A program made the translations under genes and the position numbers. A stretch of DNA of 64,000 nucleotides from Candidatus Nealsonbacteria bacterium. Its GTDB lineage: Bacteria > Patescibacteriota > Minisyncoccia > Minisyncoccales > PWPS01. A model generated the notes under the pieces. It saw nothing but the letters and a program-made list of their open reading frames with translations, was not told the DNA's origin and did no database searches. The stretch lies in the NCBI GenBank assembly GCA_003551425.1, contig PUMP01000059.1, forward strand, positions 1 to 64,000. The letters are read 5' to 3'. Below are positions 22,017-62,288 of this stretch, in pieces; the stretch's first letter is position 1, and every line of letters starts with the position of its first letter.

Positions 22017-22044
22017 GGCCGACAATCACTGTCGGTCTTCTTCA
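22017..22044. terminator. Hairpin ccgaca-atcac-tgtcgg followed by a T-rich tract, a candidate bidirectional terminator
   Basis: A perfect inverted repeat lies between the convergent SPFH gene and the 22059-22469 gene. Confidence 0.5.
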
Positions 22045-22058
22045 TGGACAAGAAAGAG

Positions 22059-22469: not shown

Positions 22470-22479
22470 ATGAAATTAA

Positions 22480-24699: not shown

Positions 24700-24721
24700 T
24701 TATCTTTAATTATTCTTTATT

Positions 24722-26173: not shown

Positions 26174-26865
26174 GCTTCGTTTTCTGTTTTAATCTCTATG
26201 GAATCCATTATATGGTTTACTTGTTCAGAAAAATCTTCCCAAAGACTGGAGATTATGAAAACGGAAACCATGTATCTTTCGTTATCAATATGTATTATTT
26301 GTTCTTTTGCTCGAACCTCTCCTATCGGGCTTTTATACTTTGTTTTAAATATTTTTCCATGTTTTGTTTCTTCTTCTTCCAAAATCTCACGGGAAGTATC
26401 TTTCACAAAAATATCTTCCGTTTTTTTCAATAAATCACCTTCTTCCGCACCATCTTCTCTTAAAACAGTCATTCCCGCCTTTGCCTCAAAAGGCCCTACA
26501 AGAAAAGAGGTAAAAAGGATTTCAATGTTCTCCTGATCCAAGTCTTCTATATCTTCTACAGATTCCCAGTGCGAAGGGTATGCTACTCTTATTTTGTCAT
26601 TTGGCCCTGTAAATTCTTCATATTCTATCTCTTCGGCGCTTTTTAGTTCTTCGTTATTTAGGCTTCGATATTCATCCAGATAATCTCCGCTAATAATGTC
26701 TTCCATGGAAGGAAGAGAATATTCCGAAGTGGCTATTTCTCTTTCCGGAAACCTGGGGTGAGTAACGCCCTCTTTATTCCCGGTTTGCTGGCTGTGAAAA
26801 TAGGTAGAAAGAACCAGGAAAGCTATCATCAAGAAGCTTATTATAACTATTTTTTTATCCGACAT
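26170..26865 (-). CDS. Hypothetical N-terminally membrane-anchored acidic protein
   Basis: N-terminal TM 'IVIISFLMIAFLVLSTYF'. It is co-directional and overlaps its neighbours by 4 nt. Confidence 0.4.
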   Translation of the reverse strand: MSDKKIVIISFLMIAFLVLSTYFHSQQTGNKEGVTHPRFPEREIATSEYSLPSMEDIISGDYLDEYRSLNNEELKSAEEIEYEEFTGPNDKIRVAYPSHWESVEDIEDLDQENIEILFTSFLVGPFEAKAGMTVLREDGAEEGDLLKKTEDIFVKDTSREILEEEETKHGKIFKTKYKSPIGEVRAKEQIIHIDNERYMVSVFIISSLWEDFSEQVNHIMDSIEIKTENEA

Positions 26866-26873
26866 TTTTATGA

Positions 26874-29800
26874 TTATAATTCAATTTGCCACCAAAATCC
26901 ATATATGCTTGTATCATATCCTATCATAGGCATTCCCATTGTTAAAATAAGCCATCCGAAGAAAAGGATGACAAATCCGATTCCTACCGCTCTCCAAACA
27001 GCCTTTACTCTTGCCAAGACCTCTGTTCCCAAGGAAGGAGAAAGGTAAAATATTGCCCCTGTTGCCAGTATCATTAATCCAATAGCGACGGGAAAGAGGT
27101 TCCAAAGAACAAAATCGATTAATACTTTAAATAATATCAATAAATGCTTGGGCTGGCAAGATTCTCTTTCATTCCAGTCGGTATCCGGGCTGTTATATGT
27201 CCTGCCACAAGGAACAAGGCCGACGCCGTCAACCTCTACTTCGTAGTAATTGAAAGACCACCAGGGAGAAAAGTCTCCGCTTTCTTCGCACTCGCTGTCA
27301 AGGCAAGATTTTACTCTCCACTCATAATCTCCCAGGTCAAATAACCTTAAAAAGAAATTATTATCGGAGATAATCTCTTTTTCTTTCTCTCCGTCGGGAA
27401 AAATAACTTCGTATTTATAATAATTTGCTCCCCTAATAGCGTTCCAAGAAACATCGATATTTCTTTCTTCGGTAAAAATCTCGGCGTTATCTTGAGGGCT
27501 GGGGACAGAAGGAGCGTAAAGAGTAAAGGTGGTGAACTCTACCGGAGGAGTAAAGAATCCTCCGCAATAATCGGTGCCCGGATCGGCACAAGTTTCCACT
27601 GTCCAAGAATAAGATTCTTCTGTTTTAATTTTCGGATAGTCAAGACGGATCCTTGTCGTTGAAGTATGACTTCTTTTTATCTTATCTCCTTCTTTGTTAA
27701 ATAACTCGAATACATAGGATTTTGCCCCCGAAACAGCTCCCCACTCTGCGTTAAGGGGAATTAAAACTTCTTGGGCTTTGTTATAAGGAGTTGCGGTTTT
27801 ATTTAAGTCGGGAGGACGTCCGGTAGTGGTAAATTTATGCCAATCCGTCCAAGTGTCGTTACAATCGTCTCCGTTTTCGTCGTAGCAAGACCTGAGCCGC
27901 CACCTGTAATCTGTGTTAAGAGCAAAGTCATCTATGTCTATCCTGGTATTGGTATCTTGAAGGTGTCTTTCTATTGTTCCTCCTTCTCCGTCCATTCTTT
28001 CCAGCTGAAAATAATAGGAGTGAGCACCAAATGGCTTGTTCCACTCAAAATAAGCGCTGGGATGAATGGCGATAGGATTTCTCCCCTCTGGATCGTTAAG
28101 AGGAGAGAGTCCGGAGGGGTTCTCAAGACCCCCGGAAACAATAAACTTCCATATTTGACCATAATCGGTGCAGTCTTTTCTGGAGTGGTCTTTACAAGCG
28201 GCGATTTGCCATCCGTATATCTCTCCTTTTTCATCGAATAGTCCGACATTTTTATTAATTAATTTTGTAGGAGGGTCTCCTCTATGGATAGGAACAAGAC
28301 TAGGATCGTGAATGGGGACAGGTTCGCAAAGACCTCCCAAGCGAACACGGTCGGGATGACACTCCAGTTCACCGCCTATTTCTTTATAGGCATAAAGCAA
28401 ATAAGCCTTATAATCTTCCTCTCTTTCATGGTCACACCAAGTTGGGTTTGCGTCTTTAAAGTCTATAGGGTTATGATGAGTCCCCGCCATACTTTCCGGA
28501 TCTACCCATCCGGAATCATAAGGGGAAAGCGGTTCGGGAGCCTCGTTGGTTTGAAATCCCGGCCAACTGCTCCACTTTCCGCAGTCTGTACCATCAGTGC
28601 TACAACAAGCCTGTACTTTCCAGTTATGGGTGTCGCCGGGCCTAAGAAGGCAGCGGTCTGCATTGAAGTTATTACGGGAAACCGTGGTTTCAAGAGCTTT
28701 CCCCGAAGAGCTTGAGGTTAGCTTATAGGAAGAGCCTGCTATCTTTTCACTATTATCTTTGTTTAAGGCAGCTAAATCTATCCTTGAATCGGAAGGAGAT
28801 TTCTCTAGAAGAAGATCGTTTTCGTAAGGATCTTCCATTTCGCCGTTATAGAGATCTTCTGGAGGAGTCTCTTTATCTGATACATATTTTGGCACATAGC
28901 CTGGAACATAATAAGTTGCTCTCCCCATGTTGCTATGATTCCTAATATAATTAATAGTTTCTGCAAAGACTAGCTGATTACGATCAAGATATTTAAGAGG
29001 ATCGTCATGTCCACGATCAACACCACCGCTCCAGCAAGAACCCAAACAAACATCAAGATGCAAATGAACTCCAGTAGAGGCTCCGGTAGTTCCCATTCTT
29101 CCGATTTGTTGTCCTTGCTCTACTTTATCGCCTGGACTAACGAACATACTATGGAGATGAAGATACTGCGTATATAGATTATCTCCACTGCCCGTTATAT
29201 CACCGTGATTGATTCTTACAGTATTTCCCGCGCCTCTTCCAGGGGTACCGATATATCTTGCTATAGTTACTTTACCTTCTGCTGCTGCATATATAGGTGG
29301 ATTAGTAAATCCTGATTGAACAAAGTCAGTCCCAAGATGAAAATGGCCAACATCCATGTCCCAGCCACTGCGATCTTGGGCAAAATTAGAAGTAACTCTT
29401 ATATTTTTTAATTCTAATGGCCAAGCAAGAAGTCCTTCTTCCGGAGCAGGAGGAGGGTCGCCAATAGGCTGAGAGGGGTCGTCGGGATCGGGATGAAGAA
29501 AATCTCTGGTGGTATTGTCTATCTTTATGTTATAAGAGCTTGGTCCCGTATCTTCATTCCATCCTGAGACATTGTCCCAAGCAAGAGCTACGGGAAGATA
29601 TATGTCATCATTTCCTTCATAAGGATAATCGGACTGAAGAATTGTTGTTGCTGGATTGGCGTAATACTCTTCGTTTTGCGGAGCATCTAAACACTCACCG
29701 GCACAGGAGCAATCATTTTTTGTAGCATCACACTTTTCCCAAGAGTTGCAATTTTCTTTAGTTACCCAACGAGTATTACCGCATCCATCTTCTTGCTGTC

Positions 29801-29972
29801 TCTGCAATGTTCCTCCGCAGCTACCAACACAGCGCGTGTTATTGGTATTACTCCAGCTGGGCTCACACTCTTCGGCATTAGCCAAGTTTATCCCCAAAGC
29901 AAGGAAGGCGGTTATTATTAAAAAAAGAGAAAATAATAAGAGAGTTTTTATGTTGGCTGGCTTAAATGACAT
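26874..29972 (-). CDS. Large secreted M23-family (LytM-type) peptidoglycan metallopeptidase. Architecture: Cys-rich N-terminus, M23 domain, three Fn3-like repeats, and a C-terminal two-helix pilin-like membrane module.
   Basis: Signal peptide present. M23 motifs 'HLGTDF', 'GKV...GNTVRINHGD....YTQYLHLHS..V..GDKVEQGQQIGRMGTTGASTGVHLHLDV'. Three ~90 aa repeats (YYFQLE...YRWRLRSCYDENGDDC; YVFELF...YSWTVETCADPGTDYC; YKYEVI...YEWRVKSCLDSECEES). The C-terminal 'VGLVPCGRTYNSPDTDWNERESCQ...' plus two TM helices is shared with the 41710-42222 protein. Confidence 0.7.
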   Translation of the reverse strand: MSFKPANIKTLLLFSLFLIITAFLALGINLANAEECEPSWSNTNNTRCVGSCGGTLQRQQEDGCGNTRWVTKENCNSWEKCDATKNDCSCAGECLDAPQNEEYYANPATTILQSDYPYEGNDDIYLPVALAWDNVSGWNEDTGPSSYNIKIDNTTRDFLHPDPDDPSQPIGDPPPAPEEGLLAWPLELKNIRVTSNFAQDRSGWDMDVGHFHLGTDFVQSGFTNPPIYAAAEGKVTIARYIGTPGRGAGNTVRINHGDITGSGDNLYTQYLHLHSMFVSPGDKVEQGQQIGRMGTTGASTGVHLHLDVCLGSCWSGGVDRGHDDPLKYLDRNQLVFAETINYIRNHSNMGRATYYVPGYVPKYVSDKETPPEDLYNGEMEDPYENDLLLEKSPSDSRIDLAALNKDNSEKIAGSSYKLTSSSSGKALETTVSRNNFNADRCLLRPGDTHNWKVQACCSTDGTDCGKWSSWPGFQTNEAPEPLSPYDSGWVDPESMAGTHHNPIDFKDANPTWCDHEREEDYKAYLLYAYKEIGGELECHPDRVRLGGLCEPVPIHDPSLVPIHRGDPPTKLINKNVGLFDEKGEIYGWQIAACKDHSRKDCTDYGQIWKFIVSGGLENPSGLSPLNDPEGRNPIAIHPSAYFEWNKPFGAHSYYFQLERMDGEGGTIERHLQDTNTRIDIDDFALNTDYRWRLRSCYDENGDDCNDTWTDWHKFTTTGRPPDLNKTATPYNKAQEVLIPLNAEWGAVSGAKSYVFELFNKEGDKIKRSHTSTTRIRLDYPKIKTEESYSWTVETCADPGTDYCGGFFTPPVEFTTFTLYAPSVPSPQDNAEIFTEERNIDVSWNAIRGANYYKYEVIFPDGEKEKEIISDNNFFLRLFDLGDYEWRVKSCLDSECEESGDFSPWWSFNYYEVEVDGVGLVPCGRTYNSPDTDWNERESCQPKHLLILFKVLIDFVLWNLFPVAIGLMILATGAIFYLSPSLGTEVLARVKAVWRAVGIGFVILFFGWLILTMGMPMIGYDTSIYGFWWQIEL

Positions 29973-32256: not shown

Positions 32257-33570
32257 TTATAAACGATCAATTATTGCCTTAGTACTTTCAAGCGAAGTGG
32301 AAAATACAATTTTTCTTCCCACTATAGCGTAATAAAATCCTATGCCCTCATGAGGAGACTCTGTGCTTATGACGTTATCTTTTTCTATCCATCCCTCCGT
32401 GTTATTTACCAGTATACTGTAACGATCTCCTTCTTCTCTTAGTTTCTTGTATTTTTCACCTTCTTCTGTTCTTCCTGTTTCGATTAAGTTTTGCGCTCCG
32501 GAGTATATAGGAGTGTTTCTCATAACGTTAAGAAGTTCTTCTTCCGGTGGAGTGCTGCGGTAACGGATAATAATGTTTTCATAAGTAGTGCTATTTAATT
32601 CTTCGTCAGTAGTAGGAACCTCTATCTCTAAGAAAGAGAATAGTCTTTGAAAATCTCTTTCAATAGATTCCTCCCAAGGCCTCATTAATCCCCAGCTTAA
32701 ATCTTTGTCTTCATTCGTTTCTACCACGAATCCAAGCCTGCTCTCCTTTTCTTTTGTGTATAAAAGAAGAGTAAAGTCTTCTTCTATTATATCAAAGAAA
32801 TCTTGAGGGTGACTGACACGAAAAATTTGAAAGAAATCTTTTAAATTAGAAATACGTGGCTCTTCCTCTCTTTGGTCTTCTATAATTATACGTACCATTT
32901 CTCCTCTTTCCTCTTCTTCTATTGCCTTGCGTAAAAGCATAATATATTCATCATTACTTGTGATCGGAATTCTGATAATATCATCTTTTTCTCTGTCTAT
33001 TCTTATAAGGGAATCGGGGGCACGAGGGGTAATTATCTCTTTTACTTTTTCTACCGGCTCAACTTCCGGAGGAGAAGTTAAAAATAAGGCTCTGTAAAGA
33101 AAAGCAATAGAAAAAATAAAGATAGAAACAATAACCAAGGCCACAAGTAAGCGGACCCATAATTTTGATTTTTCAGTAGGTTTCTGCGGGGGTTGCAAGT
33201 GTTCTTCTTCTATCTCTTCCTCATCTTCCTCTTCTATATCTTCTTCCTCTGGTGAGGATTCTGAAAGAGAGGATTCTAACGCTTCGGAAGAAGGGGTCGC
33301 AAAGCCACCTTCTTTACTCATTTCTTTCTGCTCAACTCTTTCTAAGAACTTTCTTCTTCTTTCTTCCTCCTTGTTTATTCTGGCAGAGGATTCTTCTTGT
33401 GCATTTTGCTTTATTATTTCATCTAAAATTTGCGAAGGACCTGCTCCCCGATATTCCGCTTTTAGAAAAAAATCTTCTTTCTCTGGATTTTGTCTTCTTA
33501 TCTCAGATAAGATCTCTTTGTCGGAAGCCCCTTTTGCTCGGGCTTTTTTAATAGAGCTTACAATGTTCAT
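32257..33570 (-). CDS. Hypothetical single-pass membrane protein (acidic N-terminal cytoplasmic region, TM near aa 135-157, ~280 aa outside)
   Basis: ORF with a clear TM segment 'LWVRLLVALVIVSIFIFSIAFL'. No recognisable catalytic motif. Confidence 0.4.
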   Translation of the reverse strand: MNIVSSIKKARAKGASDKEILSEIRRQNPEKEDFFLKAEYRGAGPSQILDEIIKQNAQEESSARINKEEERRRKFLERVEQKEMSKEGGFATPSSEALESSLSESSPEEEDIEEEDEEEIEEEHLQPPQKPTEKSKLWVRLLVALVIVSIFIFSIAFLYRALFLTSPPEVEPVEKVKEIITPRAPDSLIRIDREKDDIIRIPITSNDEYIMLLRKAIEEEERGEMVRIIIEDQREEEPRISNLKDFFQIFRVSHPQDFFDIIEEDFTLLLYTKEKESRLGFVVETNEDKDLSWGLMRPWEESIERDFQRLFSFLEIEVPTTDEELNSTTYENIIIRYRSTPPEEELLNVMRNTPIYSGAQNLIETGRTEEGEKYKKLREEGDRYSILVNNTEGWIEKDNVISTESPHEGIGFYYAIVGRKIVFSTSLESTKAIIDRL

Positions 33571-33575
33571 GTGTT

Positions 33576-36455
33576 TTAGAACTTAAAATCTAAATCAGAG
33601 ATGTCCGGAGTTTCTTCCTTTTTCTTTGGAGAAGGGGGAGTCTCTTCTTCCTCCTCTTCCTCTTCTTCCTCTTCCTCTTCTTCATCTTCCCCCTCCTCTT
33701 CAGGCTCTTCTATTTCTTCCTCGCTTTCTTTTGCTTTTTCGTCATTTTCTTCTAATTTTTTTCTGTCCAGTTCTTCTCTATATTTATCTTCTTCCTCCTC
33801 TTCATCTTCTTCCTCCTCTTCTTCTGCCTCTTCCTCTTCTATGTCTTCATCATCATCTAGCACTTCCTCTTCTTCCGGCTCTTCTTCTGTTATTATCGAC
33901 TCTTCTTCCTCTTCGCCCTTTACGGACTGCTCCAGCTCTCCTATCTCTTCTCGAAGCTCCGCTTCTCTTTTTTGAATAAGGTCGAATCCTTGTTTTTCTT
34001 TTTCAATTTCCGCCAATCTATTCTCTAACTTCCATATCTCCTTTTCTTTATCGCGCTTTTCTTCTTCTACCTCCCATCTTTTTTCTTCTACTTTCTTTTT
34101 TTCTCCGGGATCTTCGATGTATTGCTCTTCTTCCTCTATGTCATCCATGCGACTTTTAATTTCTTCTTTGCTCTTCTTCATCTCTTCAAGAGATTCTTTT
34201 ATTTGAGTTTCTTCATCAATTAATTTCTCGCTTTTTTCTTCTATTCTGCCCCTAATTGTTTGTACTCTTTTCAGTTCTTTCTTCTTTTGTTTTGCTTTCT
34301 CTGTCTTCTCTATATTTTCCTCTTTTACCGCAAGAGAACTTTCTTTCTTCTTTAACCTTTCTTCTTCGTTTAGTATTTGCTGGTAATGCAGTTCGGAAGC
34401 GTACAATTGTTCTTCAATCTTTTTAACTCTTTTTTGCAAGCCCCACTTTTCTTTTTCAATATCTCTTCTTTTTTCTTCTATCATCCATCTTTCTTTTTCT
34501 TTTTCCCTCCTTTCTTCTGTAGTTTTGGCTGACGATTCCTCTTTCTCAATCTTCTTTTTCCTGTCTTCTACCTCTTTCTCCCTTTCGAGCGTAATATTTA
34601 ATTTTTCTTGAAGATGATCTTTCTTCTCTTTCGTTTTAGCTGTCTTTAAATCAAGACCCTTTCTTTCCTCTTTGATAGAACTTATTTTTTCTTTTATTTT
34701 TGCTCTTTCCAGTGAGACTTTTACCCTTTTTTCTTTCTGAGACAACTCTTTCCACCTTTCATGAACTCTTTTTTCTTTATTGGAGATTCTCCACTTTCTT
34801 GTGTGTGTTTGGCGGCTTCTTTTTTTTATTTCATTTAATCTTTCCTTGATGTCCCATATCTTTCTTTTAGCCTCTCTTATTTCTTCTTCTACCTCCCATC
34901 TGTTCTTTTCAATCTCACTTTTTTCCTCCGGGTTGTATGCTATTTTTTCTTTTGACTCGATATCATCCCTCTTTCTTTCAATATATCTTTCTTCTTTATA
35001 AGCTTCTTCTAGCTTTCTTTCGCTCACTTTTTCTTTCTGTGAAAGCTTATCTGCCTCAATCTCTAAGAGCTTTCTTTCTTCTCGCAAGTCGTAGAATTGG
35101 TCACTTAACTTTTCTTTTAATAGTTCTATCTTCTCCAAGTGAAGTTCTTTTTTTTGTACCGAGGAAAGAGTTTCATCTTGTAAGCCAATAGCGATCTCCC
35201 TTTCTTTTCTCTTAATATTTCTTTCTCTTTCTCTTTCTTCTTTTCTTTTTTGCAACTCTTCTTCTTTTTTTCTTATAAGCTTCTCTTGTTTATTGATTTT
35301 CTCTAACCCTTTTTCGGTGTCACTTAGCTCTTTTTCCATGTCCCATCTCTCTTTCTCTATGTTTCTTCTTTTTTCTTCTATACTCCACCCTCTTTCGGTT
35401 AATTCCTTTTCTTCGCCCGTCCCCTTTGCAATGCTCTCCTCTTTTTTAATACTGCTCTTTTTACTCTCTATCTCTTTTTCTTTCTCTTTTATTTCTTTTA
35501 ATTTATCTGAAAGCTCTATTCTTCTTGCAAGAAGATTCTCTTTCTCTTCTTTAAGAGATTCTTTTTTTTCGGTTATTTTTTCTTCGAGATCACCTGCCGG
35601 TATTTTTTCTTCTTTCTCTAGAGGAGTCTTTGTTTCTTCCCTTGCTTTTACTTCTCTTATCTCGTCTTCTTTTTCTTGCAGCTTTTCAATCTCTTCTCCA
35701 AGCTCTTCCAATCGATTGGTTGCTTTTTCAATCTTTTCTCTTGCAGCGGCAACCTCTTCTTCTTTTTGCCACCTTTCTTCTTCTATTTTTTTTCTTTCGT
35801 CTTCTATCTTCCACCTTTCCTCCTTAAGTTTCTTTTTTTTGGAAAAGTCTTTTTCTATTTCTTCTTTTTTTTCCAGGTCTCTTTCTTTTTTTTCAATTGT
35901 TTTTTCTTTCTCTTTTATTTCTCTTAGCCTTTCTTTTATTTTTTTCTCCTCGCTAACCAATGATTTTTTTTCTTTAAGAAGAAGATTCCCTTCCTTTTCT
36001 TTCTTCTTTATTTTTTCTTCAATTTGTTCTCCCTCTGTTTCTTTTTGGTCTTTTTGATCTTTTTCAAGTTTTTGCTCTTCTTCTTTCTTCTTTTTCTTAA
36101 GCTCTTCTCTCTCTTGCCTTAAAGAGCTTATTTGTTTTTCTACTTCTTCAACCTTACTTTCCCAGTTCCAACGCTCTTTTTCGATGTCTTTTCTTTTGTC
36201 TTCAACTCTCCATCTTTCTTCGCTTATTTTCTTTTTTTCTTTCTCGTCTTTTGTTTTTTCTCCCTGCTCTTCTATCTCTTTTTCTTTATCCTCTATCTCT
36301 CTTTCTTTTTTGGTTATAAGGTTGAGGCTTTTTTTAATTTGCTCTTTCTTTTCCGTAGCGCTGGCAATGTTAACTTCTAGCTCTTCAAGCTTTTTTTCCA
36401 GCTCTTTTAATTTATTGTTTTTTTCTTCCAAGTTATTATTGTTTGAATTTATCAT
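33576..36455 (-). CDS. Giant (959 aa) E/K-rich coiled-coil repeat protein with a poly-acidic C-terminal tail
   Basis: There is no TM or signal. The motif 'E[EK]RW.[IV]E[DE][KE]R[RK].IEKE.W..E' occurs at least 6 times (for example EERWRVEDKRKDIEKERWNWE, ERWKIEDERKKIEEERWQKE, KERWMIEEKRRDIEKEKWGLQ). The tail is 'EEEEEEEEEEEEEETPPSPKKKEE'. Confidence 0.6.
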   Translation of the reverse strand: MINSNNNNLEEKNNKLKELEKKLEELEVNIASATEKKEQIKKSLNLITKKEREIEDKEKEIEEQGEKTKDEKEKKKISEERWRVEDKRKDIEKERWNWESKVEEVEKQISSLRQEREELKKKKKEEEQKLEKDQKDQKETEGEQIEEKIKKKEKEGNLLLKEKKSLVSEEKKIKERLREIKEKEKTIEKKERDLEKKEEIEKDFSKKKKLKEERWKIEDERKKIEEERWQKEEEVAAAREKIEKATNRLEELGEEIEKLQEKEDEIREVKAREETKTPLEKEEKIPAGDLEEKITEKKESLKEEKENLLARRIELSDKLKEIKEKEKEIESKKSSIKKEESIAKGTGEEKELTERGWSIEEKRRNIEKERWDMEKELSDTEKGLEKINKQEKLIRKKEEELQKRKEERERERNIKRKEREIAIGLQDETLSSVQKKELHLEKIELLKEKLSDQFYDLREERKLLEIEADKLSQKEKVSERKLEEAYKEERYIERKRDDIESKEKIAYNPEEKSEIEKNRWEVEEEIREAKRKIWDIKERLNEIKKRSRQTHTRKWRISNKEKRVHERWKELSQKEKRVKVSLERAKIKEKISSIKEERKGLDLKTAKTKEKKDHLQEKLNITLEREKEVEDRKKKIEKEESSAKTTEERREKEKERWMIEEKRRDIEKEKWGLQKRVKKIEEQLYASELHYQQILNEEERLKKKESSLAVKEENIEKTEKAKQKKKELKRVQTIRGRIEEKSEKLIDEETQIKESLEEMKKSKEEIKSRMDDIEEEEQYIEDPGEKKKVEEKRWEVEEEKRDKEKEIWKLENRLAEIEKEKQGFDLIQKREAELREEIGELEQSVKGEEEEESIITEEEPEEEEVLDDDEDIEEEEAEEEEEEDEEEEEDKYREELDRKKLEENDEKAKESEEEIEEPEEEGEDEEEEEEEEEEEEEETPPSPKKKEETPDISDLDFKF

Positions 36456-36467
36456 GAGCCAAAAACC

Positions 36468-38726
36468 TTAAGAAATTACTTTTTGAAGTTCGTTTGTTAT
36501 TTTTTTTGCAATTTCCGCAAACCTTTCTTCAAGAACTTCACTGTCTTTCTCTTTCTCCATCATTGTTTCTGTCTTCTTTTTTTCTTTCTCCAGAGAGATT
36601 AACTGTTCCTTGTCTTTAAAGCTTTCTTTCTCTTTGCTTAATTTATCTTCTTCTTCCGATATTTGCTTGTACTGTGATTCTATTTTTTTCTGAAGGTTTT
36701 CCATTTCTCTTATCTTTTCCTGGAGCTTCCATTTTAAGCTCTCTATTTCTCTTCTCTTGTCTTCTAGCTGCCATCTCTTCTTTGTCTCATCCTTTCTTTC
36801 TTTTGAGTTAATATCCATTGTCTCTATTTTATCTTCCATCCATCTTATTTGTTCTTCAACCTCGCTCTCATTTTTCATTATATCTCTTAATTTTTCTTCA
36901 CTTTCTTTCTTCCTCTCTTGTAGTTGCCTTTTTTTCTTATCAAGAATTTCTCTTTTTTTCTTAAGCTCTTCTTCCCTTTCTCTTATCTTCTCCCTTCTTC
37001 CCTCCATCTCCATCCACTCCAAAAGCTTAGAGGCAAGATCTTTTTCTTTATCGTGCATATTTTCTTTTTCTTCCATCAATCTATCATATCTTTTCTCCAT
37101 CTCTTTCCTTTCTTTTGTAACATTGTTTAATTTTTCTTGGATGTCCAAAGATTCTTTTTCCACGGCTCTTCTTTTTTCTCCTATTTCCCACCTTTTCTTT
37201 TCCATCTCTCTTACTTCTTGAGGGTCCTTTGCTGTTCTTTCTCTTTCTTCGATATCTTCTTTCTCTTTCTTCATCTGTTTTTCTTTTTCATAAACTTCGT
37301 TGAGCTCTCCTTTGATCTCTCTTTCTTTTTCCAAGGGAGCCTTTAAATCTCTCTTAATCTCTTTCTTTTTTTCTATCGTCTCACAGATAGCGCCTAAAAG
37401 ATCTATTCTGTTTATGACTATCTGTTTTCTGTATCGGGGGTCTCTTAAAAGAAACTCTTTTCTTTTAAGGGAAATGAAGCGCTTTTTCTCTTCAATCTGC
37501 TCTTTCTCTTTTGCTCTTTTTTCCTTTTCTTTGTTTAGGGCATCTTCTGCGGCGGTGGTTCTTTCTTGAAAAGCTTTTTCATTTTGCCGTATCTCTTTTT
37601 TAAGTGACTCTATTTTTTCTTTTAGAGAAGTACTTTTGCCTTCAATTATCTTTATTTTCTCTTTTGTTTTTTTAATTTTTTCCTGCCACTCCCAAGCCTC
37701 TTCTTTGACTTGTTTCTTTTTCTCTTCGATCCTCCATCTTTCACTTTCAAGTTCCTCTAGCTCTTTGCTATCCTCTGTTTTCCCCGTTCTTTCTTTTATG
37801 TCTAAAAATCTTTCCTTTATGTTTTTATCTACTTGGATAATTTTCTTTAACTTGTCTTTTGCTCTTTTTTCACGAGCTTGAAGCAGTCCTATTATTTGTT
37901 CGTAAAAATTATTTTTCTTTTCTAGAAATCTTATTTTGCTTTGAGGTATGAGGATAGAAAGCTTAAGACCCAAAGCCTCTCTTTCCACCTTTATTATCTC
38001 GGCTTTTCTCTTTGCTCTTTCTTCTTTTATATCACAAAGGAGTTGCCTTAACTCAAGAGATTGTATTCCTTTTTTAATTTGAATTATTTTTTCTTCTATT
38101 TCCCAGCTTATTCTACTCGCTTCTCTTTCTTTTCTGCTTATCTCTTCTTCTTTTCTTTCAAGGTCTTCCTGTCTTTCAGGGCTTTGTGCCGCCACTTTCA
38201 TCTCTTTTATCTTTTCTTTTTGCGTCTTTATCTTTGTTTCCTTTGATTTTACAACGCCTTTTTTCTCTTCCAGCTTTATAATGTTCTTTTTTGCAAAGTT
38301 ATTCTTTAGCTCGAGAGATTTTCTTTCTTTTAACACCTCTTCCAGTAGCTGGTTGTTTCTTTCTTGCTCTTGTCTTTTTTCTTCAATTTTTCTTTTGGTT
38401 GCTTCTATTTTATCCTTTACGGACTCTTTTATCCCTTGTCTTGTTTTTTCAATATTTTTTATCCACTCTTCTTTTTCTTCCTTTTCAATCTTTCTTATTT
38501 TATTTTCTTCCTCCAGTCTTGCTTGCCTTTTTTCTTCCTCTTTTCTTTTTTCTTCTTCTCTTATTATTTCTTCTTCTTTCTTTTTGTCTTCTTCACTTTT
38601 CTTTTGCGTTCCTTTCTGCGGGGGTTTGGATTGTTGAGCCACGTCTTTTTTTCCTCCTGTCTTGGCAAGTAAAAGGTCCTTTTTCATCGTCCTAATCTCT
38701 TGTGTGGTGTCTTTATTTTCTTCCAT
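36468..38726 (-). CDS. Giant (752 aa) E/K-rich coiled-coil repeat protein, paralogue of the 33576-36455 protein
   Basis: Same composition and the same W-containing motif ('SERWRIEEKKKQVKEEAWEWQEKI', 'KKRWEIGEKRRAVEKE', 'KKRWQLEDKRREIESLKWKLQEKI'). It lies directly downstream of pnp on the same strand. Confidence 0.6.
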   Translation of the reverse strand: MEENKDTTQEIRTMKKDLLLAKTGGKKDVAQQSKPPQKGTQKKSEEDKKKEEEIIREEEKRKEEEKRQARLEEENKIRKIEKEEKEEWIKNIEKTRQGIKESVKDKIEATKRKIEEKRQEQERNNQLLEEVLKERKSLELKNNFAKKNIIKLEEKKGVVKSKETKIKTQKEKIKEMKVAAQSPERQEDLERKEEEISRKEREASRISWEIEEKIIQIKKGIQSLELRQLLCDIKEERAKRKAEIIKVEREALGLKLSILIPQSKIRFLEKKNNFYEQIIGLLQAREKRAKDKLKKIIQVDKNIKERFLDIKERTGKTEDSKELEELESERWRIEEKKKQVKEEAWEWQEKIKKTKEKIKIIEGKSTSLKEKIESLKKEIRQNEKAFQERTTAAEDALNKEKEKRAKEKEQIEEKKRFISLKRKEFLLRDPRYRKQIVINRIDLLGAICETIEKKKEIKRDLKAPLEKEREIKGELNEVYEKEKQMKKEKEDIEERERTAKDPQEVREMEKKRWEIGEKRRAVEKESLDIQEKLNNVTKERKEMEKRYDRLMEEKENMHDKEKDLASKLLEWMEMEGRREKIREREEELKKKREILDKKKRQLQERKKESEEKLRDIMKNESEVEEQIRWMEDKIETMDINSKERKDETKKRWQLEDKRREIESLKWKLQEKIREMENLQKKIESQYKQISEEEDKLSKEKESFKDKEQLISLEKEKKKTETMMEKEKDSEVLEERFAEIAKKITNELQKVIS

Positions 38727-55508: not shown

Positions 55509-56763
55509 AAGAATATTACAAAAAATCAGACCTCTTGTTAGTGCTTATCACTTTCTTTTTTCTTTTTTGGGAGCGGCTTATTACCGTTTTCCCTCTTCCA
55601 AAATAAAAGTTTTTGCCGTGACGGGAACCAACGGAAAAACTACTACCGTAGACCTTGCGTCTCGTATATTCAAAGAGGCCGGATATAAGGTGGCCGCTTT
55701 TTCTTCGGTAAAATTTGAAATTGCGGGTGAAGAGAAAAAAAATCTTTTCAAAATGACAATGCCGGGAAGAGCGGTTATCCAATCGCTTCTCAGGAAAGCG
55801 GTCAGTAAAGGCTGTGAAGTGGCGATAATGGAAGTTACATCGGAGGGGATTAAGCAACATCGCCACCGTTTTATAAATTTTGCCGCTGTTTGCTTTACTA
55901 ATCTTTCTCCGGAACATATTGAGTCGCATGGAGGGTTTGAAAACTATAAGAGAGAGAAGGGTAAACTTTTTAAAGCGGCAAAGACCACTCATATTATAAA
56001 TACTGACGACGAGCACTCAGGTTATTTTCTCGGTTTTAAGAGTAAGGAGAAAATTTGTTATGGAGCAAGGGGCGTATCACCGAGAGAAGACTGCAGAGCG
56101 CTTCGTGCCACCGATATAAAATCCTCCTATGACGGTATAAATTTTGTGGTAGAAAGCACGAGCTTTAACCTTAAATTAAAAGGTTCTTTTAACGTTTATA
56201 ATGCTCTTGCCGCTACTTCTTTTGCTTCGCTTGAAGGAATAAAGCTGGAAGTAGCGGCAAGAGCTCTTTCTAATGCAAAAGTAATTCCGGGAAGGATGGA
56301 AGAAATCATTTCTTCTCCCTTTAAAGTGATTGTGGATTATGCAGTTACTCCTGTTACATTGGAAGCTGTTTATAAAGAGATTAGCGACCATTTTGACCAC
56401 GAGAGAATAATCGCTGTTTTAGGATCGTGCGGTGGCGGGAGAGACAAGTGGAAAAGGCCTGTACTAGGAGAGATTGCCGCGGAATATTGTGACCGAATTA
56501 TTGTTACCAATGAAGATCCTTACGACGAAGATCCCGAAGAAATAATTGAAGAGGTTATTTCCGGTACAAAAGGAAAAGGGGAAAAAATAATAGACAGAAG
56601 GAAAGCAATAGGAGAAGCAATTAAGGGGGCGAGAGAAAGAGATGTAATAATTGTTACCGGAAAAGGGAACGAACCTTGGCTTTGCCTTGAGGGAGGGAAG
56701 AAGATACCGTGGAGTGAGAAAGAGGTAATAGAGGAAGAGTTCAATAAAAATGCTAATAAGTGA
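55501..56763 (+). CDS. Mur ligase family protein (MurE/MurF-like, lacking the N-terminal domain)
   Basis: P-loop 'VFAVTGTNGKTTTV', 'NLSPEHIESHGGFENYKREKGKLF' and the Mur ligase middle/C-terminal domain pattern. Confidence 0.65.
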   Translation: MLKRILQKIRPLVSAYHFLFSFLGAAYYRFPSSKIKVFAVTGTNGKTTTVDLASRIFKEAGYKVAAFSSVKFEIAGEEKKNLFKMTMPGRAVIQSLLRKAVSKGCEVAIMEVTSEGIKQHRHRFINFAAVCFTNLSPEHIESHGGFENYKREKGKLFKAAKTTHIINTDDEHSGYFLGFKSKEKICYGARGVSPREDCRALRATDIKSSYDGINFVVESTSFNLKLKGSFNVYNALAATSFASLEGIKLEVAARALSNAKVIPGRMEEIISSPFKVIVDYAVTPVTLEAVYKEISDHFDHERIIAVLGSCGGGRDKWKRPVLGEIAAEYCDRIIVTNEDPYDEDPEEIIEEVISGTKGKGEKIIDRRKAIGEAIKGARERDVIIVTGKGNEPWLCLEGGKKIPWSEKEVIEEEFNKNANK

Positions 56764-58174
56764 TTTTAAAAAAGTAGATGATTATCTTTGGGAAATTCCC
56801 AAAGATCGCCGCAGGGATATGCTTGTTCCCGCAAGAGTGTATGCAACAGAAGAAATATTGGAAGCGAGCTTGCAGGACAGATCGTTGCAGCAGCTGGTGA
56901 ATCTTACTACACTCCCCGGAATAGAAAGATATGCGATTGCAATGCCTGACATTCACGAAGGTTATGGCTCTCCTATCGGGGGTGTAGTTGCTACCGACGC
57001 AAACAAGGGGGTAATATCTCCCGGGGTTGGTGGTTATGACATAAACTGTGGAATGCGGCTTTTTGCATCAAGTGTCTCTGAAAACGAGGCAGCACCGCAT
57101 TTAGAAGAATTGGCTGGCAAATTGCAAAGAGAGATTCCTTCCGGATTGGGAAAGGGAAGAAAATTAAAATTTAACTCTTTTCAAATGAACTTATTACTTG
57201 AAAAGGGAGTGGATTACTTGATAGAGGAAGGATATGGCACAAAAGAAGAAGCGGAGCTTTGTGAAGAAAAAGGAAGAGTAGAAGATGCAAATCCTTCTGC
57301 TATTTCGGAAAAAGCAAAAAAGAGAGGAGCAGATCAAGTGGGAACTTTGGGCTCCGGAAATCATTTTTTGGAGATACAAAAAGTAGAGGAAGTCTTTGCA
57401 AAAGAAGAGGCAGAAACGATGGGTGTCTTCAAAGGGCAAATAATGATTATGGTTCATTCCGGATCACGAGGGCTTGGGCATCAAGTCGCCAGTGAAAATA
57501 TTGACGCAATGGGGCGTAAAATGAGAGATTACGGCATTACTGTTCCCGACAAGGAGCTTGTTTGTGCTCCTTTTCTTTCTAAAGAAGGAAAAGAGTACAA
57601 GGAGGCCCTTTCCGGCGCCATGAACTATGCTTTTGCCAACAGGCATATGATTGGTCACTTTATTCACAGAGCGTGGGAAAAAGTTTTTGAAAAAGAGGCC
57701 CTTAATATGATTTATGATGTTGCGCATAATACGGTAAAACTGGAAAATCACTACGGAAAGAAGCTTCTTGTGCACCGAAAAGGAGCAACCGAAGCTCTCC
57801 CACCGGGAGATGAAAATATTCCGGAGAAGTATAAAAAGACAGGACAGCCGGTAATTATTCCCGGCTCTATGGGAACAGCTTCTTATCTCTTGTGCGGAGC
57901 GGAAAAGGCAAGAGAAACATTTTATTCCGTCTCCCATGGAGCAGGAAGAAAAATGTCCAGAAAAGAGGCGGTTCGAAGAGTGGGAGAAGAGGATATAGTA
58001 AAGGAACTGAAAAAGAAAGGAATTATCATAAAGTCGTTCTCGAAAAAAGGAATTGCCGAAGAGGTGCCTTTTGCGTATAAGGATATAAATAAGGTGGTAA
58101 ATGTGATTTGCGGTGCCGGTTTAGCCAAGAAAGTAGCAAAAATTGTCCCTCTCTTTGTGATAAAGGGGGAGTAA
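56750..58174 (+). CDS. rtcB: RNA-splicing ligase RtcB
   Basis: 'MPDIHEGYGSPIGGV', 'DINCGMRL', 'GSGNHFLEIQ' and 'HNTV' metal and GMP-histidine motifs. Confidence 0.9.
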   Translation: MLISDFKKVDDYLWEIPKDRRRDMLVPARVYATEEILEASLQDRSLQQLVNLTTLPGIERYAIAMPDIHEGYGSPIGGVVATDANKGVISPGVGGYDINCGMRLFASSVSENEAAPHLEELAGKLQREIPSGLGKGRKLKFNSFQMNLLLEKGVDYLIEEGYGTKEEAELCEEKGRVEDANPSAISEKAKKRGADQVGTLGSGNHFLEIQKVEEVFAKEEAETMGVFKGQIMIMVHSGSRGLGHQVASENIDAMGRKMRDYGITVPDKELVCAPFLSKEGKEYKEALSGAMNYAFANRHMIGHFIHRAWEKVFEKEALNMIYDVAHNTVKLENHYGKKLLVHRKGATEALPPGDENIPEKYKKTGQPVIIPGSMGTASYLLCGAEKARETFYSVSHGAGRKMSRKEAVRRVGEEDIVKELKKKGIIIKSFSKKGIAEEVPFAYKDINKVVNVICGAGLAKKVAKIVPLFVIKGE

Positions 58175-58225
58175 TTATTTTGACAAGGACGGTATAAAGA
58201 ATTAGAATAAGGGGCGTATTTATTA

Positions 58226-58366
58226 ATGATTTTGAGGCCTATGAAAAAGAAAAGAATCCCTAGAAGCATCCGGAAACACATTAGAAAAGAGAAAGCTCGT
58301 ATCAGAAAGGATGCCGTAAACAAGGAAGAAAAAATAAAAGAACTTTTAAATAAGTTTAATTTATGA
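58226..58366 (+). CDS. Small basic protein (46 aa, MILRPMKKKRIPRSIRKHIRKEKARIRKDAVNKEEKIKELLNKFNL), translationally coupled (ATGA) to the downstream Nif3 gene
   Basis: A sigma70-like promoter (TTGACA-17-TAGAAT) lies upstream, with a purine-rich RBS. Its stop overlaps the next start in the ATGA arrangement. It is not in the ORF track because it is under 60 aa. Confidence 0.4.
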   Translation: MILRPMKKKRIPRSIRKHIRKEKARIRKDAVNKEEKIKELLNKFNL

Positions 58367-59310
58367 AAATAAAAGAAATATATAATTTAGCCGTAAAAGA
58401 AGGAATAGAAGCCGACTTTAGAGGGAAAGAAAAAATCTCTTGGCTTCTCGACAGAAAGAGGAAGAAGTTTGAAAAGATGAGTGAAGAACAGAAGGAAGAG
58501 TTTGACCAAGAAAAACTAAATAATCCTTTTACCGATACCCGTATTCTTGCTGGAGATGAAGAAAAAGAAGTCAAGAAGATCATGGTAGGTATTGATATTG
58601 ACGGGGAAGAACTTCTCCTGGCTAAAGAATTGGGAGATATAGATTTGGTCATTTCCCATCATCCACGAGGGAAAGCTCTTGCCGGACTGGATGATGTAAT
58701 GGAGCTCCAAGCAGATCTTCTTCATGATTACGGAGTTCCTATTAACATAGCGGAAAAGCTTTCAAAGAAGCGAATTCAAGAAGTTTCTCGCGGGCTTGCT
58801 CCCGGAAATCATAACAGGGTAGTAGATACGGCAAACCTTTTGGGAATTCCTTTGATGTGTATACATACGCCCGCTGATAATCTTGTAGCAAAATTTGTAG
58901 AAGAAGAGATTAAAAAGAATAACCCTTTTTTGGTGGAAGATGTAATGAAAGCACTCAAAGGAATAGAAGAATATCGCAGGGCGATTGCCATAGGAATTGG
59001 TCCTAGGCTTTTTGCCGGCAAGGAAGAAGACAGAGTAGGGAAAATAGCGCTTACGGAGATTACGGGAGGCACGGAAGGGTCTTCTCACATCTATGAGCAC
59101 CTTGCAAGGCAAGGAATAGGGACCGTTGTTGGAATGCATATTTCGGAAAAGAGTCGCGAGGAGGCTGAGAAGGCGCATATTAACGTAGTTATTGCGGGCC
59201 ATATTTCTTCCGATTCTATCGGAATGAATCTTTTTCTTGATTTACTTGAAAAAGAAGGATTAAACATAGTCCCTTCTTCGGGGCTTATAAGGGTCTCAAG
59301 GCAAAAGTAA
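58363..59310 (+). CDS. Nif3-family dinuclear metal-centre protein (GTP cyclohydrolase 1 type 2 / YqfO-like)
   Basis: 'DLVISHHP', 'MCIHTPADN' and 'VIAGHISSDSIGM' match the Nif3 metal-binding motifs. Confidence 0.7.
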   Translation: MKIKEIYNLAVKEGIEADFRGKEKISWLLDRKRKKFEKMSEEQKEEFDQEKLNNPFTDTRILAGDEEKEVKKIMVGIDIDGEELLLAKELGDIDLVISHHPRGKALAGLDDVMELQADLLHDYGVPINIAEKLSKKRIQEVSRGLAPGNHNRVVDTANLLGIPLMCIHTPADNLVAKFVEEEIKKNNPFLVEDVMKALKGIEEYRRAIAIGIGPRLFAGKEEDRVGKIALTEITGGTEGSSHIYEHLARQGIGTVVGMHISEKSREEAEKAHINVVIAGHISSDSIGMNLFLDLLEKEGLNIVPSSGLIRVSRQK

Positions 59311-60113
59311 TGCGTCTTTTCTTAGTAGAGCTTTTTCTTTTTTCGGTCACTTTACTCTTAGGAATTTTAGTTTCTTTTCGGCTTGATAAAGCTCTTGTGG
59401 TAGAAGGATCTGTCGCTCCGATGGGAGCGATTTTTTTATACTTTATACTGGCAACTCTATTTATTCTTTTTTTTATAAAGAAAGGAGGAGAAAGAAAAAC
59501 TTTTTTCTTTCGTTTAGCATTTTATCTGGCTGTCTTTTTTGGAGGACTAATTACACTTTCTAGCTTTTTAGAAAATTATGCTTTTATTTTTCTCTTCCTC
59601 CTTCTTTTTATTTTTACCGTTAAGCCGATTATTTTAGTACACAATATTTGTATTATTATCGGCATTTCCGGGGTAGGCGCGATGGCCGGTCTTTCTTTCT
59701 TACCGCAACAGATTGCAATATTTATGGTTTTGCTCTCTTTTTATGATGTGATTGCGGTATACAAGACAAAACACATGATAAAAATGGCCAAAGAAATGAT
59801 TGCTGCACGTTCTTTAATGGGGATGATTATCCCTTTTCATTTACGGGACTTTCTTTCAACAAGCAAGAAATTTTTTATTTTAGGAGGAGGAGACGTTATG
59901 ATTCCGCTTATTTTTGCTGTTTCTTTTGTCCCTCAAAATAGTGTTTATCCTTTTGTTATTTTTCTTTTTTCAATTCTTGGTCTTTTCTTCTCTTTTCTTA
60001 TTTTTATATCACTCTCACGTCCTATTCCCGCGTTACCCCCGATAGTACTTTTCCTTCTTTTGGGATATCTTTTTATTGAGCTTCAGGTTCTTTATCATAT
60101 AGGTATCCTTTAG
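59310..60113 (+). CDS. Presenilin / signal-peptide-peptidase-like (A22 family) intramembrane aspartyl protease homologue
   Basis: Polytopic (about 8-9 TM helices). It has the catalytic-type motifs 'SFYDVIAVY' (YD), 'LGGGDVMIPLIF' (GxGD) and 'SRPIPALPPIVLF' (PAL) in the canonical order and spacing. Confidence 0.55.
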   Translation: MRLFLVELFLFSVTLLLGILVSFRLDKALVVEGSVAPMGAIFLYFILATLFILFFIKKGGERKTFFFRLAFYLAVFFGGLITLSSFLENYAFIFLFLLLFIFTVKPIILVHNICIIIGISGVGAMAGLSFLPQQIAIFMVLLSFYDVIAVYKTKHMIKMAKEMIAARSLMGMIIPFHLRDFLSTSKKFFILGGGDVMIPLIFAVSFVPQNSVYPFVIFLFSILGLFFSFLIFISLSRPIPALPPIVLFLLLGYLFIELQVLYHIGIL

Positions 60114-61628
60114 GCGATATCCGGATTTTCTCCAGTAATCTCTTGCGCCAATTCCGGAGATTACCGTAATGCGGTCTTTTTTGAATTCATCTTTTACTAT
60201 TTTTTCTGCTCTTTTGATTAACTTTTTGCCGAGCCCTTTATGCTGAGGAGATGCTGCACCTTTATTCTTTATTAAGAGTTGTTGCCCGTAAGTGTGTATT
60301 TCTCTTATAACCCCTGAGCTTTTTAGTACCGAAAAAACTGAATCTTCTACCTTTCTTAATCTTAATATAGCAAAAAGCTTATTTCTGCTATCGTTTTCTA
60401 TGCTGAGAAAAACCTCTTTTCCTTCTGACGCAAAATAATCTTCTCGGAAAATCTTTAGTTTCTCTTTCGGATTATATTCTCCCCTTACTTCTCTGCAACG
60501 GATACACTTACATCTCCAATTTTCTTTTTCGGCTTCTTTTATAATATTTTCCCTTAAGTTAGATATTTTTGAGCCTGCAATGATACTTTGTGAAGGAATG
60601 TCCCGAAAAAGCCTTTGTATTCTCACATAGCGCGGAATAAATTCTCTTTTTATCTTTTTGATTATCCCTACAAGTTCTTTATTAGTAAAAGCACGGTATT
60701 CCCCTTTTTGCCAAAGAGAGTATAGGGGAGCTTCTTTTAACACGGCGCAAGGGTATATCTTTAAAAAATCAGGGCGAAAAGATGAGTCTTCAAAGAGTTG
60801 TCGGAAGGTTTCAACGTCTTTTTTTACGCTACTTTGTGGAAGGTTGAGCATTACTTGATGACAAACCTTAAAACCGGTGTCTTTTAAAAGTTTTGTTGCT
60901 TTTTTTGTGTCTTCCACTTTGTGCCCTCTTTGATTGAAATCTAATACGTCATCAAAAAGTGACTGAATGCCAAGCTCAACCATGGTAACTCCCATGGAGC
61001 GCATCCTTTCAATCTCTTCTTTGGTGATAAAATCGGGCCTAGTCTCTACGGAAAGACAGATAATACGATGCTTTGCTTTCTCGTTTCTTTTTTGGGCTTC
61101 TGCTAGGTTTTTGCTGTTTCTTCTATTGCACGCGTCAAAGCATTTTTTGATAAAGCTTTCTTGGTATTTTTTAGGATAAAAAGACCACGTTCCTCCTATA
61201 ACCCTTAATTCTATTTTATCCGTAGGATGCCCTGTCTTTTGTAAAGACGAGATCCTTGTTTTTACTTGTTCTTGAGGGTTATAACTATTTCTTACCGCAC
61301 GCATTACGGCCGGCTCGTTCTGGAGATAGCTTTTCGGTACTCCTTCCTGAAACGGGCAGTAAAGACATCTCCCTGGACAAGGAAAGGGCTTGGTAAGAAC
61401 AGATATGTTTACTACTCCGGACAGGGAGCGAACGGGCCTTGTTCTCAGCAAAGAAACCACTCGTTCGTCTCTTTTTTTATTTTTATGATAAACTTGAAGA
61501 AGGTCCGTATTGGTAGGAAAAGAGGCTTTATGCTTTTTGGCCACTTCTCTTTTTATCCGGTTTAGATCCTTTATATTGGTCGCCTCTTCTTCAATTATTT
61601 TTTTAATTATTTCTTTTTCGATGCTCAT
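60033..61628 (-). CDS. Elongator Elp3 homologue (radical SAM + GNAT; tRNA wobble uridine cm5U synthase)
   Basis: Radical-SAM 'CPGRCLYCP' (CxxxCxxC), Elp3-type N-terminal 'SGVVNISVLTKPFPCPG' and a C-terminal GNAT 'HKGLGKKLIKRAEKI'. The ~530 aa length fits bacterial Elp3. Confidence 0.8.
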   Translation of the reverse strand: MSIEKEIIKKIIEEEATNIKDLNRIKREVAKKHKASFPTNTDLLQVYHKNKKRDERVVSLLRTRPVRSLSGVVNISVLTKPFPCPGRCLYCPFQEGVPKSYLQNEPAVMRAVRNSYNPQEQVKTRISSLQKTGHPTDKIELRVIGGTWSFYPKKYQESFIKKCFDACNRRNSKNLAEAQKRNEKAKHRIICLSVETRPDFITKEEIERMRSMGVTMVELGIQSLFDDVLDFNQRGHKVEDTKKATKLLKDTGFKVCHQVMLNLPQSSVKKDVETFRQLFEDSSFRPDFLKIYPCAVLKEAPLYSLWQKGEYRAFTNKELVGIIKKIKREFIPRYVRIQRLFRDIPSQSIIAGSKISNLRENIIKEAEKENWRCKCIRCREVRGEYNPKEKLKIFREDYFASEGKEVFLSIENDSRNKLFAILRLRKVEDSVFSVLKSSGVIREIHTYGQQLLIKNKGAASPQHKGLGKKLIKRAEKIVKDEFKKDRITVISGIGARDYWRKSGYRLKDTYMIKNLKLNKKISQKKEKYYRG

Positions 61629-62288
61629 ATGAAAAAAAAGGAAGCAAAATTTTTAATGGAAAGGCTGCGGGAAGATTATAACTCTTTAGCCCCTTCTTTT
61701 TCAAGGACTCGCGATTCTCTGTGGCCGGAACTAAAGTTCCTTTTTGATCGTGCGCGGTCGGGAGAAAAAGTACTGGACTTGGGTTGCGGAAATGGGCGTT
61801 TTTCTCAGTATCTTGAAGAAAGCGATTATGTAGGAGTTGACTTTTCGGATAAGATGATTGAGGAAGCGAAAGCACGTTTCCCGAAAGAAAAGTTCTTAGT
61901 GGCCGATGCTCTTTCTCTTCCCTTTTCTGAAAACTCTTTTCATAAAGTGTACAGCATTGCTCTTATTCATCACGTGCCTTGTGATGATTACAGGTTACAA
62001 GTTTTCAAGGAGATTAAAAGAGTTCTAAAGCCGGGAGGTTATACTTTTATTACTGCTTGGAATATAGAAAAGGGATTTCTTTTTTATTTAAAAAATATTT
62101 TTTGCAAACCTTTTGGCGCTCGTGATACTTTTTTAAAAAGGGAGAAATATTATTATATTTTTCGCAAAGAAGAGCTTTCTTTGCTGGCAACAAAGGCAGG
62201 CTTTAAAGTAATGGAAGAGGGTGTTGTAAAAACTAAAGGTAGAAATAATTTTTATCTTATTGCTTTTAAAGAAAATTCTTCTGTTTGA
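61629..62288 (+). CDS. Class I SAM-dependent methyltransferase, Trm9-like
   Basis: Motif I 'VLDLGCGNGRF', 'GVDFSDKMIE', 'LPFSENSFHKVYSIALIHHV' and 'IKRVLKPGG' resemble Trm9/ALKBH8 methyltransferases. It is divergent from Elp3. Confidence 0.55.
   Translation: MKKKEAKFLMERLREDYNSLAPSFSRTRDSLWPELKFLFDRARSGEKVLDLGCGNGRFSQYLEESDYVGVDFSDKMIEEAKARFPKEKFLVADALSLPFSENSFHKVYSIALIHHVPCDDYRLQVFKEIKRVLKPGGYTFITAWNIEKGFLFYLKNIFCKPFGARDTFLKREKYYYIFRKEELSLLATKAGFKVMEEGVVKTKGRNNFYLIAFKENSSV

Follow-up and report, generated by a model that had tools for sequence, protein, structure and literature searches.

Presenilin is a membrane-embedded protease known from Alzheimer's research, and discussion of proteases of this type usually centres on eukaryotes and archaea. 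This study addressed whether a bacterium, Candidatus Nealsonbacteria, encodes such an enzyme and which helices it would be expected to cut. The DNA under analysis comprises positions 1 to 64,000 of contig PUMP01000059.1 (GenBank assembly GCA_003551425.1); this whole 64,000-nucleotide stretch is hereafter called the window, and its positions are used throughout. An initial annotation, made from the sequence alone, had identified one of its genes as a homologue of presenilin and signal peptide peptidase (SPP; family A22). The gene and the elements on which the argument turns, all on the forward strand, are the following.

59310..60113 (+): protease gene, 267 aa, a presenilin-family, PSH-like, MEROPS A22-type GxGD protease; ATG start, nine predicted transmembrane (TM) helices
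59739..59777 (+): TM6 catalytic block FYDVIAVYKTKHM, residues 144-156 (FYDVIAVY, then KTKHM)
59742-59747 (+): YD with the first predicted catalytic aspartate, D146; Y145 and D146 are invariant and lie in TM6
59769..59882 (+): TM6-TM7 loop, residues 154-191, short, rich in K/R and predicted to be cytoplasmic; a short helix plus a beta-hairpin
59883..59894 (+): GGGD (GxGD), residues 192-195, with the second predicted catalytic aspartate, D195, at the start of TM7
60027..60041 (+): PALPP (PAL), residues 240-244, immediately N-terminal to TM9

The open reading frame (ORF) was found at the position and with the length that the initial annotation had assigned to it. The motifs named there were all present, with FYDVIAVY from residue 144 on, GGGDVMIPLIF at residues 192-202, and the PAL motif from residue 240 on. 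Positions 57874-60376 matched the Logan assembly of sequencing run SRR490150 (locus L081) with 0 mismatches over 2,503 nt, and the gene calls and the overlap with the downstream gene (described below) were the same. Because this independent assembly is identical, the gene arrangement is not a quirk of a single assembler.

A Pfam profile search of the protein identified PF06550 ("Signal-peptide peptidase, presenilin aspartyl protease") with a score of 36 bits (gathering score, 23.9). This match spanned residues 9-254 of the protease and positions 4-275 of the 283 in the profile, and no rival family, including any transporter family, matched the protease in this search. All 62 relatives examined also matched PF06550. 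In a sequence search of the PDB with the single protease sequence, the archaeal presenilin homologue PSH (4hyc and related entries) was the sole significant match (E 2e-8), and weak LptB-like matches appeared at E values of approximately 0.5-1.5. Searching with a profile of the 62-member family raised the PSH match to E 1.6e-22, covering residues 16-288 of the 301-residue chain of 4hyc. The YD of D146 was aligned with the YD of PSH "VYDAISVYRTKHM", and the GGGD was aligned with the GMGD of PSH. The initial annotation had proposed three references for profile comparison, namely PF01080 (presenilin), PF04258 (SPP), and the PSH of MCMJR1. The PSH was matched as described, and neither Pfam family gave a direct match to the protease (for PF01080, at E values up to 10); one of the 62 relatives matched PF01080 weakly (E 0.0014). 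The link of the protease to eukaryotic presenilin and SPP is visible at the fold level only.

Alignment of 120 homologues revealed that Y145, D146, G192-G193-G194-D195, and P240-A-L-P-P244 are invariant in every sequence (120/120). Much of the VYKTKHM stretch, which is common to PSH, is invariant in these homologues too, and the residue before the Y of YD is I or V in most of them. An AlphaFold2 model built on the homologue alignment (pLDDT 90.6, pTM 0.88) displayed the nine-TM presenilin fold, with helices at residues 2-29, 38-57, 61-104 (two TM spans), 108-129, 132-153, 193-204, 213-235, and 242-263. In this model, D146 lies within helix 132-153 (TM6), GGGD comes after beta-strand 188-192 and opens helix 193-204 (TM7), and PAL stands just N-terminal to helix 242-263 (TM9); the TM6-TM7 loop comprises helix 155-165 and strands 171-175 and 188-192. 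The two aspartates are thus placed on adjacent TM helices, D146 in TM6 and that of GGGD at the start of TM7.

When the model was compared with the PDB by using Foldseek, the top 25 positions were all occupied by presenilin-family structures (PSH, SPPL2a, and presenilin-1 and -2 in gamma-secretase), and transporters and G-protein-coupled receptors received probabilities below 0.1. The highest fold similarity was to SPPL2a, and the fold searches returned no FlaK or prepilin-peptidase fold. With PF06550 above its threshold, a significant PSH match, a presenilin fold, and no transporter family competing, the A22 assignment in the initial annotation is upheld; that annotation had named two findings that would argue against it, YD and GxGD lying outside membrane helices and a profile fit that favours a transporter, and the analysis yielded neither.

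The window protease nevertheless differs from the characterized members of the family. Its identity to the PSH of Methanoculleus marisnigri (MCMJR1; PDB 4hyc, 4hyd, 4hyg, and 4y6k) is only approximately 20-25%; the archaeal protein has 301 residues, whereas the window protease has 267 and belongs to a bacterium, and the canonical PAL (PALPP) of the window protease is replaced by AGL (AGLPP) in the PSH crystal protein. Identity to human SPPL2a (PDB 9k93) and to the SPP/SPPL group (MEROPS A22B) is 15-16%, the predicted orientation is opposite, and the extra luminal domain of SPPL2a is absent. Presenilin-1 and -2, the catalytic gamma-secretase subunits (MEROPS A22A), have a long TM6-TM7 loop for endoproteolysis, whereas that of the window protease has approximately 38 residues. 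The presenilin partners nicastrin, APH-1, and PEN-2 are not expected in prokaryotes. The closest similarity is to the named relatives in Patescibacteria and DPANN archaea, with which the window protease shares its clade, length class, and invariant motifs at 39-51% identity. It lacks the N-terminal extension of approximately 17 residues that most of these relatives have, and its C-terminal tail is longer than theirs.

The host is a bacterium. The window encodes RuvA, RuvB, RuvC, the delta and beta subunits of DNA polymerase III, and DnaA, along with Fpg, GreA, NusA, IF-2, ClpP, FtsH, YidC, PNPase, RNase Y, a Mur ligase, and a class A penicillin-binding protein, and the host is a member of Patescibacteria (candidate phyla radiation, CPR) close to Nealsonbacteria-type genomes. 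Homology searches recovered at least 927 relatives, all with PF06550, and an exhaustive phmmer search of 1.84 billion cluster representatives recovered 732 clusters at E <=1e-3. Scanning a single genome for each species yielded at least 531 sites with relatives, which we took as roughly that many species genomes; the scan patterns are specific to the clade and carry no inference for bacteria outside it. The best 80 of these at least 531 sites comprised 78 bacterial metagenome-assembled genomes (MAGs), mostly labelled as Patescibacteria or Parcubacteria types (Nealson-, Staskawicz-, Yanofsky-, Azam-, Uhr-, Buchanan-, and Falkowbacteria and Paceibacterota), and two DPANN archaea. Some records titled "uncultured Gammaproteobacteria" or "Candidatus Saccharibacteria" (L068, L074, L075, and many "binchicken" MAGs) carry a Patescibacteria-type gene and synteny, and their labels look unreliable.

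The initial annotation had described such enzymes as uncommon in bacteria. This statement holds only in part: relatives abound in Patescibacteria, in at least 531 species-representative genomes, and public pipelines already name the family. NCBI calls several relatives from "Patescibacteria group bacterium" and "Candidatus Nealsonbacteria bacterium" records "presenilin family intramembrane aspartyl protease", and JGI calls relatives "presenilin-like A22 family membrane protease". Because these pipelines give the clade the same name already, the identification of the protease is correct but unsurprising, and the protein is an ordinary member of an already-known family. In the searchable literature, no paper linking presenilin homologues to CPR/Patescibacteria was found, and what did come up dealt with Alzheimer's disease and the microbiome or was not pertinent; a 2021 phylogenetic paper by Raut, Glass and Lieberman lies outside its coverage.

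The membrane orientation was estimated from the distribution of positive charge. In 62 members, the mean number of K plus R residues was 2.7 in the N-terminus, 3.8 in loop 2-3, 7.7 in loop 6-7, and 1.5 in loop 8-9, and it was near zero in loops 3-4, 5-6, and 7-8 and in the C-terminus; the TM6-TM7 loop of the window protease itself carries seven. Because positive residues mark the inside, these counts predict an N-in/C-out orientation with a cytoplasmic TM6-TM7 loop, which would be presenilin-like and opposite to that of eukaryotic SPP. Among eukaryotic enzymes, orientation matches that of the substrate, in that presenilin cuts type I helices and SPP/SPPL enzymes cut type II helices.

On the basis of these findings, we consider it probable, at roughly 80%, that the gene encodes a catalytically competent, stand-alone presenilin/PSH-type intramembrane aspartyl protease in the presenilin orientation, with type I helices as its expected substrates. 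The analysis itself shows that the protease belongs to the family and has its fold and predicted topology, that its catalytic residues are strictly conserved over hundreds of lineages, and that relatives are widespread among CPR genomes. The nine TM helices would form the presenilin fold, in which D146 of YD in TM6 and D195 of GGGD in TM7 would constitute a water-activating catalytic pair within the membrane, and PAL before TM9 would shape the active site. Archaeal PSH performs proteolysis alone in vitro, and it is the only enzyme of this type for which aspartate-dependent, inhibitor-sensitive activity is known (PMC2947513, PMC9282858). Like archaeal PSH, the window protease may need no cofactor subunits and would require no endoproteolytic activation; presenilin-style maturation is not expected because the TM6-TM7 loop is so short. 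The substrates would then be single-pass helices in the N-out/C-in (type I) orientation, not signal peptides, despite the Pfam family name, and candidates include the membrane stubs left after ectodomain removal and the remnants of C-terminal anchors. We infer activity, cofactor independence, and substrate orientation from these comparisons, along with a housekeeping or regulatory role in the clearance of TM segments.

Several points weigh against this reading. The protease and all 62 relatives match NCBIfam NF041679 (IMP_arch_presen), the equivalog model of archaeal PSH, and the match of the window protease runs end to end; its score is 57.3 bits, under the cut-off of 125, and the best E value in the family is only 1.2e-29. 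Because the score falls below the equivalog cut-off, the proteins form a diverged subfamily that is related to archaeal PSH but distinct from it. Loop 1-2 carries some K/R, and the rule relating enzyme orientation to substrate orientation was derived from eukaryotic enzymes. The expectation of type I substrates follows from the presenilin orientation by analogy with those enzymes, and this putative preference is the weakest step of the explanation. To our knowledge, biochemical evidence exists for no bacterial member. A search of the 80 loci, to a distance of 2.5 kb from the protease gene, found no membrane or secretion partner and no candidate substrate gene.

An alternative within the same family is that the enzyme acts as a signal peptide peptidase, clearing the N-in/C-out remnants left after signal peptidase cleavage. 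This role is implied by the Pfam family name and has been predicted for archaeal homologues. SPP, however, has its N-terminus outside and its TM6-TM7 loop on the non-cytoplasmic side, and the charge counts place the window protease the other way around; we therefore regard this role as possible but unlikely. A second alternative accepts the presenilin fold and denies the proteolysis: the protein would be a pseudo-protease, or would serve as a scaffold or an ion-leak channel. For eukaryotic presenilins, roles other than proteolysis have been proposed (PMC6320538). The catalytic aspartate pair, the glycines of GxGD, and PAL are nevertheless invariant in all 120 homologues, and an active enzyme rather than a pseudoenzyme is expected because of this invariance; a purely non-proteolytic role is thus very improbable.

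Two further explanations place the protein outside the A22 family. The GxGD motif is common to A22-type enzymes and the A24 family of type IV prepilin peptidases and FlaK, which process pilins. Patescibacteria depend heavily on pili, and among the products of the window are a PilB-type ATPase (6080-7381) and a type IV secretion system (T4SS) pilin-like protein. The protease, however, matched no Peptidase_A24 profile and showed no FlaK-like fold; the PF06550 match and the presenilin-only fold matches effectively refute this assignment, to which we give hardly any credence. Least probable of all is that short motifs arose by chance in an unrelated hydrophobic protein or transporter. Phe, Leu, and Ile account for 45% of the residues, and sequences of this composition give spurious low-complexity matches, and weak LptB-like matches did appear; the fold and profile results refute this explanation.

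The presenilin-type reading leaves the relation between the bacterial and archaeal proteins to be considered. The two DPANN relatives, from Micrarchaeota and Woesearchaeota (L079, 5528-6361; L080, 5989-6771), show 34-40% identity and are closer to the bacterial clade than euryarchaeal PSH is. Their contexts are archaeal, with an MCM helicase adjoining the gene in L079 and with RpoE/Rpb7 and aEF-2 nearby in L080. In a rough neighbor-joining tree rooted with PSH, which is only indicative, the window protein grouped with Nealsonbacteria-type loci, and the DPANN sequences were basal to or among the bacterial ones, separated by a long branch from euryarchaeal PSH. Gene exchange across the domains, between CPR and DPANN and in either direction, would fit this arrangement. 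An extended proposal strikes us as doubtful: that the CPR and DPANN proteins are one presenilin subfamily passed between the ultra-small episymbionts of both domains and that, in the reduced bacteria, it serves in the presenilin orientation as the main enzyme for clearing, or signalling through, N-out/C-in stubs, for example what is left of the C-terminal anchors of surface proteins. If it were true, the role would be new for any bacterium, and the protein would offer a cofactor-free bacterial model of gamma-secretase-like (type I) intramembrane proteolysis.

Together with hundreds of related genomes, the locus delineates a conserved clade of bacterial proteins that have a canonical YD/GxGD/PAL site and a predicted presenilin orientation, and whose nearest archaeal relatives are in DPANN. 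If characterized, these putatively cofactor-free enzymes of approximately 270-290 aa could serve as further minimal models of gamma-secretase-like catalysis and could provide insight into the disposal of transmembrane remnants in genome-reduced bacteria.

We further analyzed the surroundings of the protease gene, in which the following features are relevant.

58180..58208 (+): promoter-like site TTGACA-17-TAGAAT, 11/12 match, in the spacer between RtcB and NIF3
58363..59310 (+): NIF3/DUF34-family gene (PF01784) upstream of the protease gene, and upstream in 31/80 related loci
60033..61628 (-): Elp3-type radical-SAM/acetyltransferase gene, convergent to the protease gene, with ELP3_N, Radical_SAM, and Radical_SAM_C domains
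60033..60113 (convergent): 81 nt over which the protease and Elp3 genes overlap at their 3' ends, also seen in the SRR490150 assembly

At the junction TAATG, the NIF3 stop codon TAA and the protease ATG have one base in common, and co-transcription of NIF3 and the protease is likely because of this overlap. The site at 58180..58208 is a possible promoter of the joint transcript; the evidence is weak because promoter-like sites are no commoner in the region (nine) than expected from shuffles (8.5), that is, at chance level. Terminator-like sites between 58000 and 62500 numbered 10, compared with 4.3 +/- 2.0 in shuffles, and fell within T-rich coding sequence; this excess is probably a by-product of T-rich codons in a Phe/Leu/Ile-rich protein. 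One terminator-like hairpin, which has an 8-bp stem with five GC pairs and a T-run, is located at 59412-59431 (+), at approximately residues 35-41 of the protease.

When every ORF lying no more than 2.5 kb from the protease gene was clustered across the 80 loci, the result was only an RNA-related syntenic block of NIF3, Elp3, Mur ligase, RtcB, methyltransferase, and DUF763. The closer relatives share the order Mur ligase, RtcB, NIF3, protease, convergent Elp3, and methyltransferase, and in a more distant group RtcB is directly downstream of the protease. Elp3 is downstream of and convergent to the protease gene in 27 of the 80. We treat this context as lineage synteny rather than a functional operon, and Elp3 as a syntenic neighbour.

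RtcB (56750-58174 in the window; also in loci L068, L069, L074, L075, and L076) thus keeps near the protease gene in two arrangements, upstream in the close clade and downstream in the distant one. In L065, the RtcB ORF (515-3517) is approximately 1,000 aa long and contains an intein-like insertion directly after QGYDINC. In 16 related genomes (for example, L055, 33-1280), a DUF763 gene (PF05559, approximately 380 aa) separates NIF3 from the protease gene; the window has none at that position. At 60033-62288, Elp3 (-) is back-to-back with a Methyltransf_11 gene (+); Elp3 occurs in 29 and the methyltransferase in 18 of the 80 related loci, and the two look like a bacterial instance of the eukaryotic or archaeal style of wobble-uridine modification pair, in which Elp3 is joined by a Trm9-like enzyme.

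The 81-nt overlap with convergent Elp3 (60033..61628), also claimed in the initial annotation, was confirmed and reproduced in the independent assembly. Among 33 loci with a convergent protease-Elp3 pair, the two genes are adjacent (gap below 300 nt) in 14, with gaps of 4-273 nt in 10 and overlaps of 4-28 nt in four; the relatives thus have a gap or an overlap of at most 28 nt, whereas the window copy has 81 nt. Past the conserved "...YMIK", Elp3 extends for 18 residues in the window and 2-10 in relatives, and past "GYL" the protease extends for 13 residues in the window and 4-7 in relatives. The non-conserved Elp3 tail (60036-60089) is antisense to the conserved TM9 of the protease (60033-60092), and the non-conserved protease tail is antisense to the conserved "LKDTYMIK" of Elp3. 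The most economical explanation is loss of the spacer together with both original stop codons, which left each gene extending into the other. The overlap is a compact-genome curiosity rather than a supported functional feature.

Other features of the window lie apart from the protease locus. The dnaN and dnaA genes are adjacent at 13290-16055 (-) and are followed by yidC and a jag-like R3H gene at 16602-17748; the lowest GC content of the window (0.307) occurs at 14001-16000, around and upstream of dnaA. The dnaN-dnaA-yidC region is probably the chromosomal origin region. A cluster at 17745-29972 (-) has the look of a type IV secretion-like or conjugation-like apparatus. Its products include a 605-aa VirB4/TraG-like P-loop ATPase, a T4SS-pilin-like protein of 483 aa, and a protein of 1,032 aa that carries an M23 peptidase domain; several of its ORFs are unmatched. 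Three large ORFs (437, 959, and 752 aa) at 32257-38726 (-) have no Pfam match; the region has a GC content of 0.33, a GC skew of -0.46, and an AT skew of -0.58, and the ORFs may encode compositionally biased surface or repeat proteins. The window also holds 16 tRNA genes and several dense tRNA clusters. One such cluster contains a tRNA-Ile with the anticodon UAU at 1079-1154 (+), identified by ARAGORN and by an Rfam tRNA match, which is unusual because in most bacteria the codon AUA is read by a CAU tRNA modified with lysidine.
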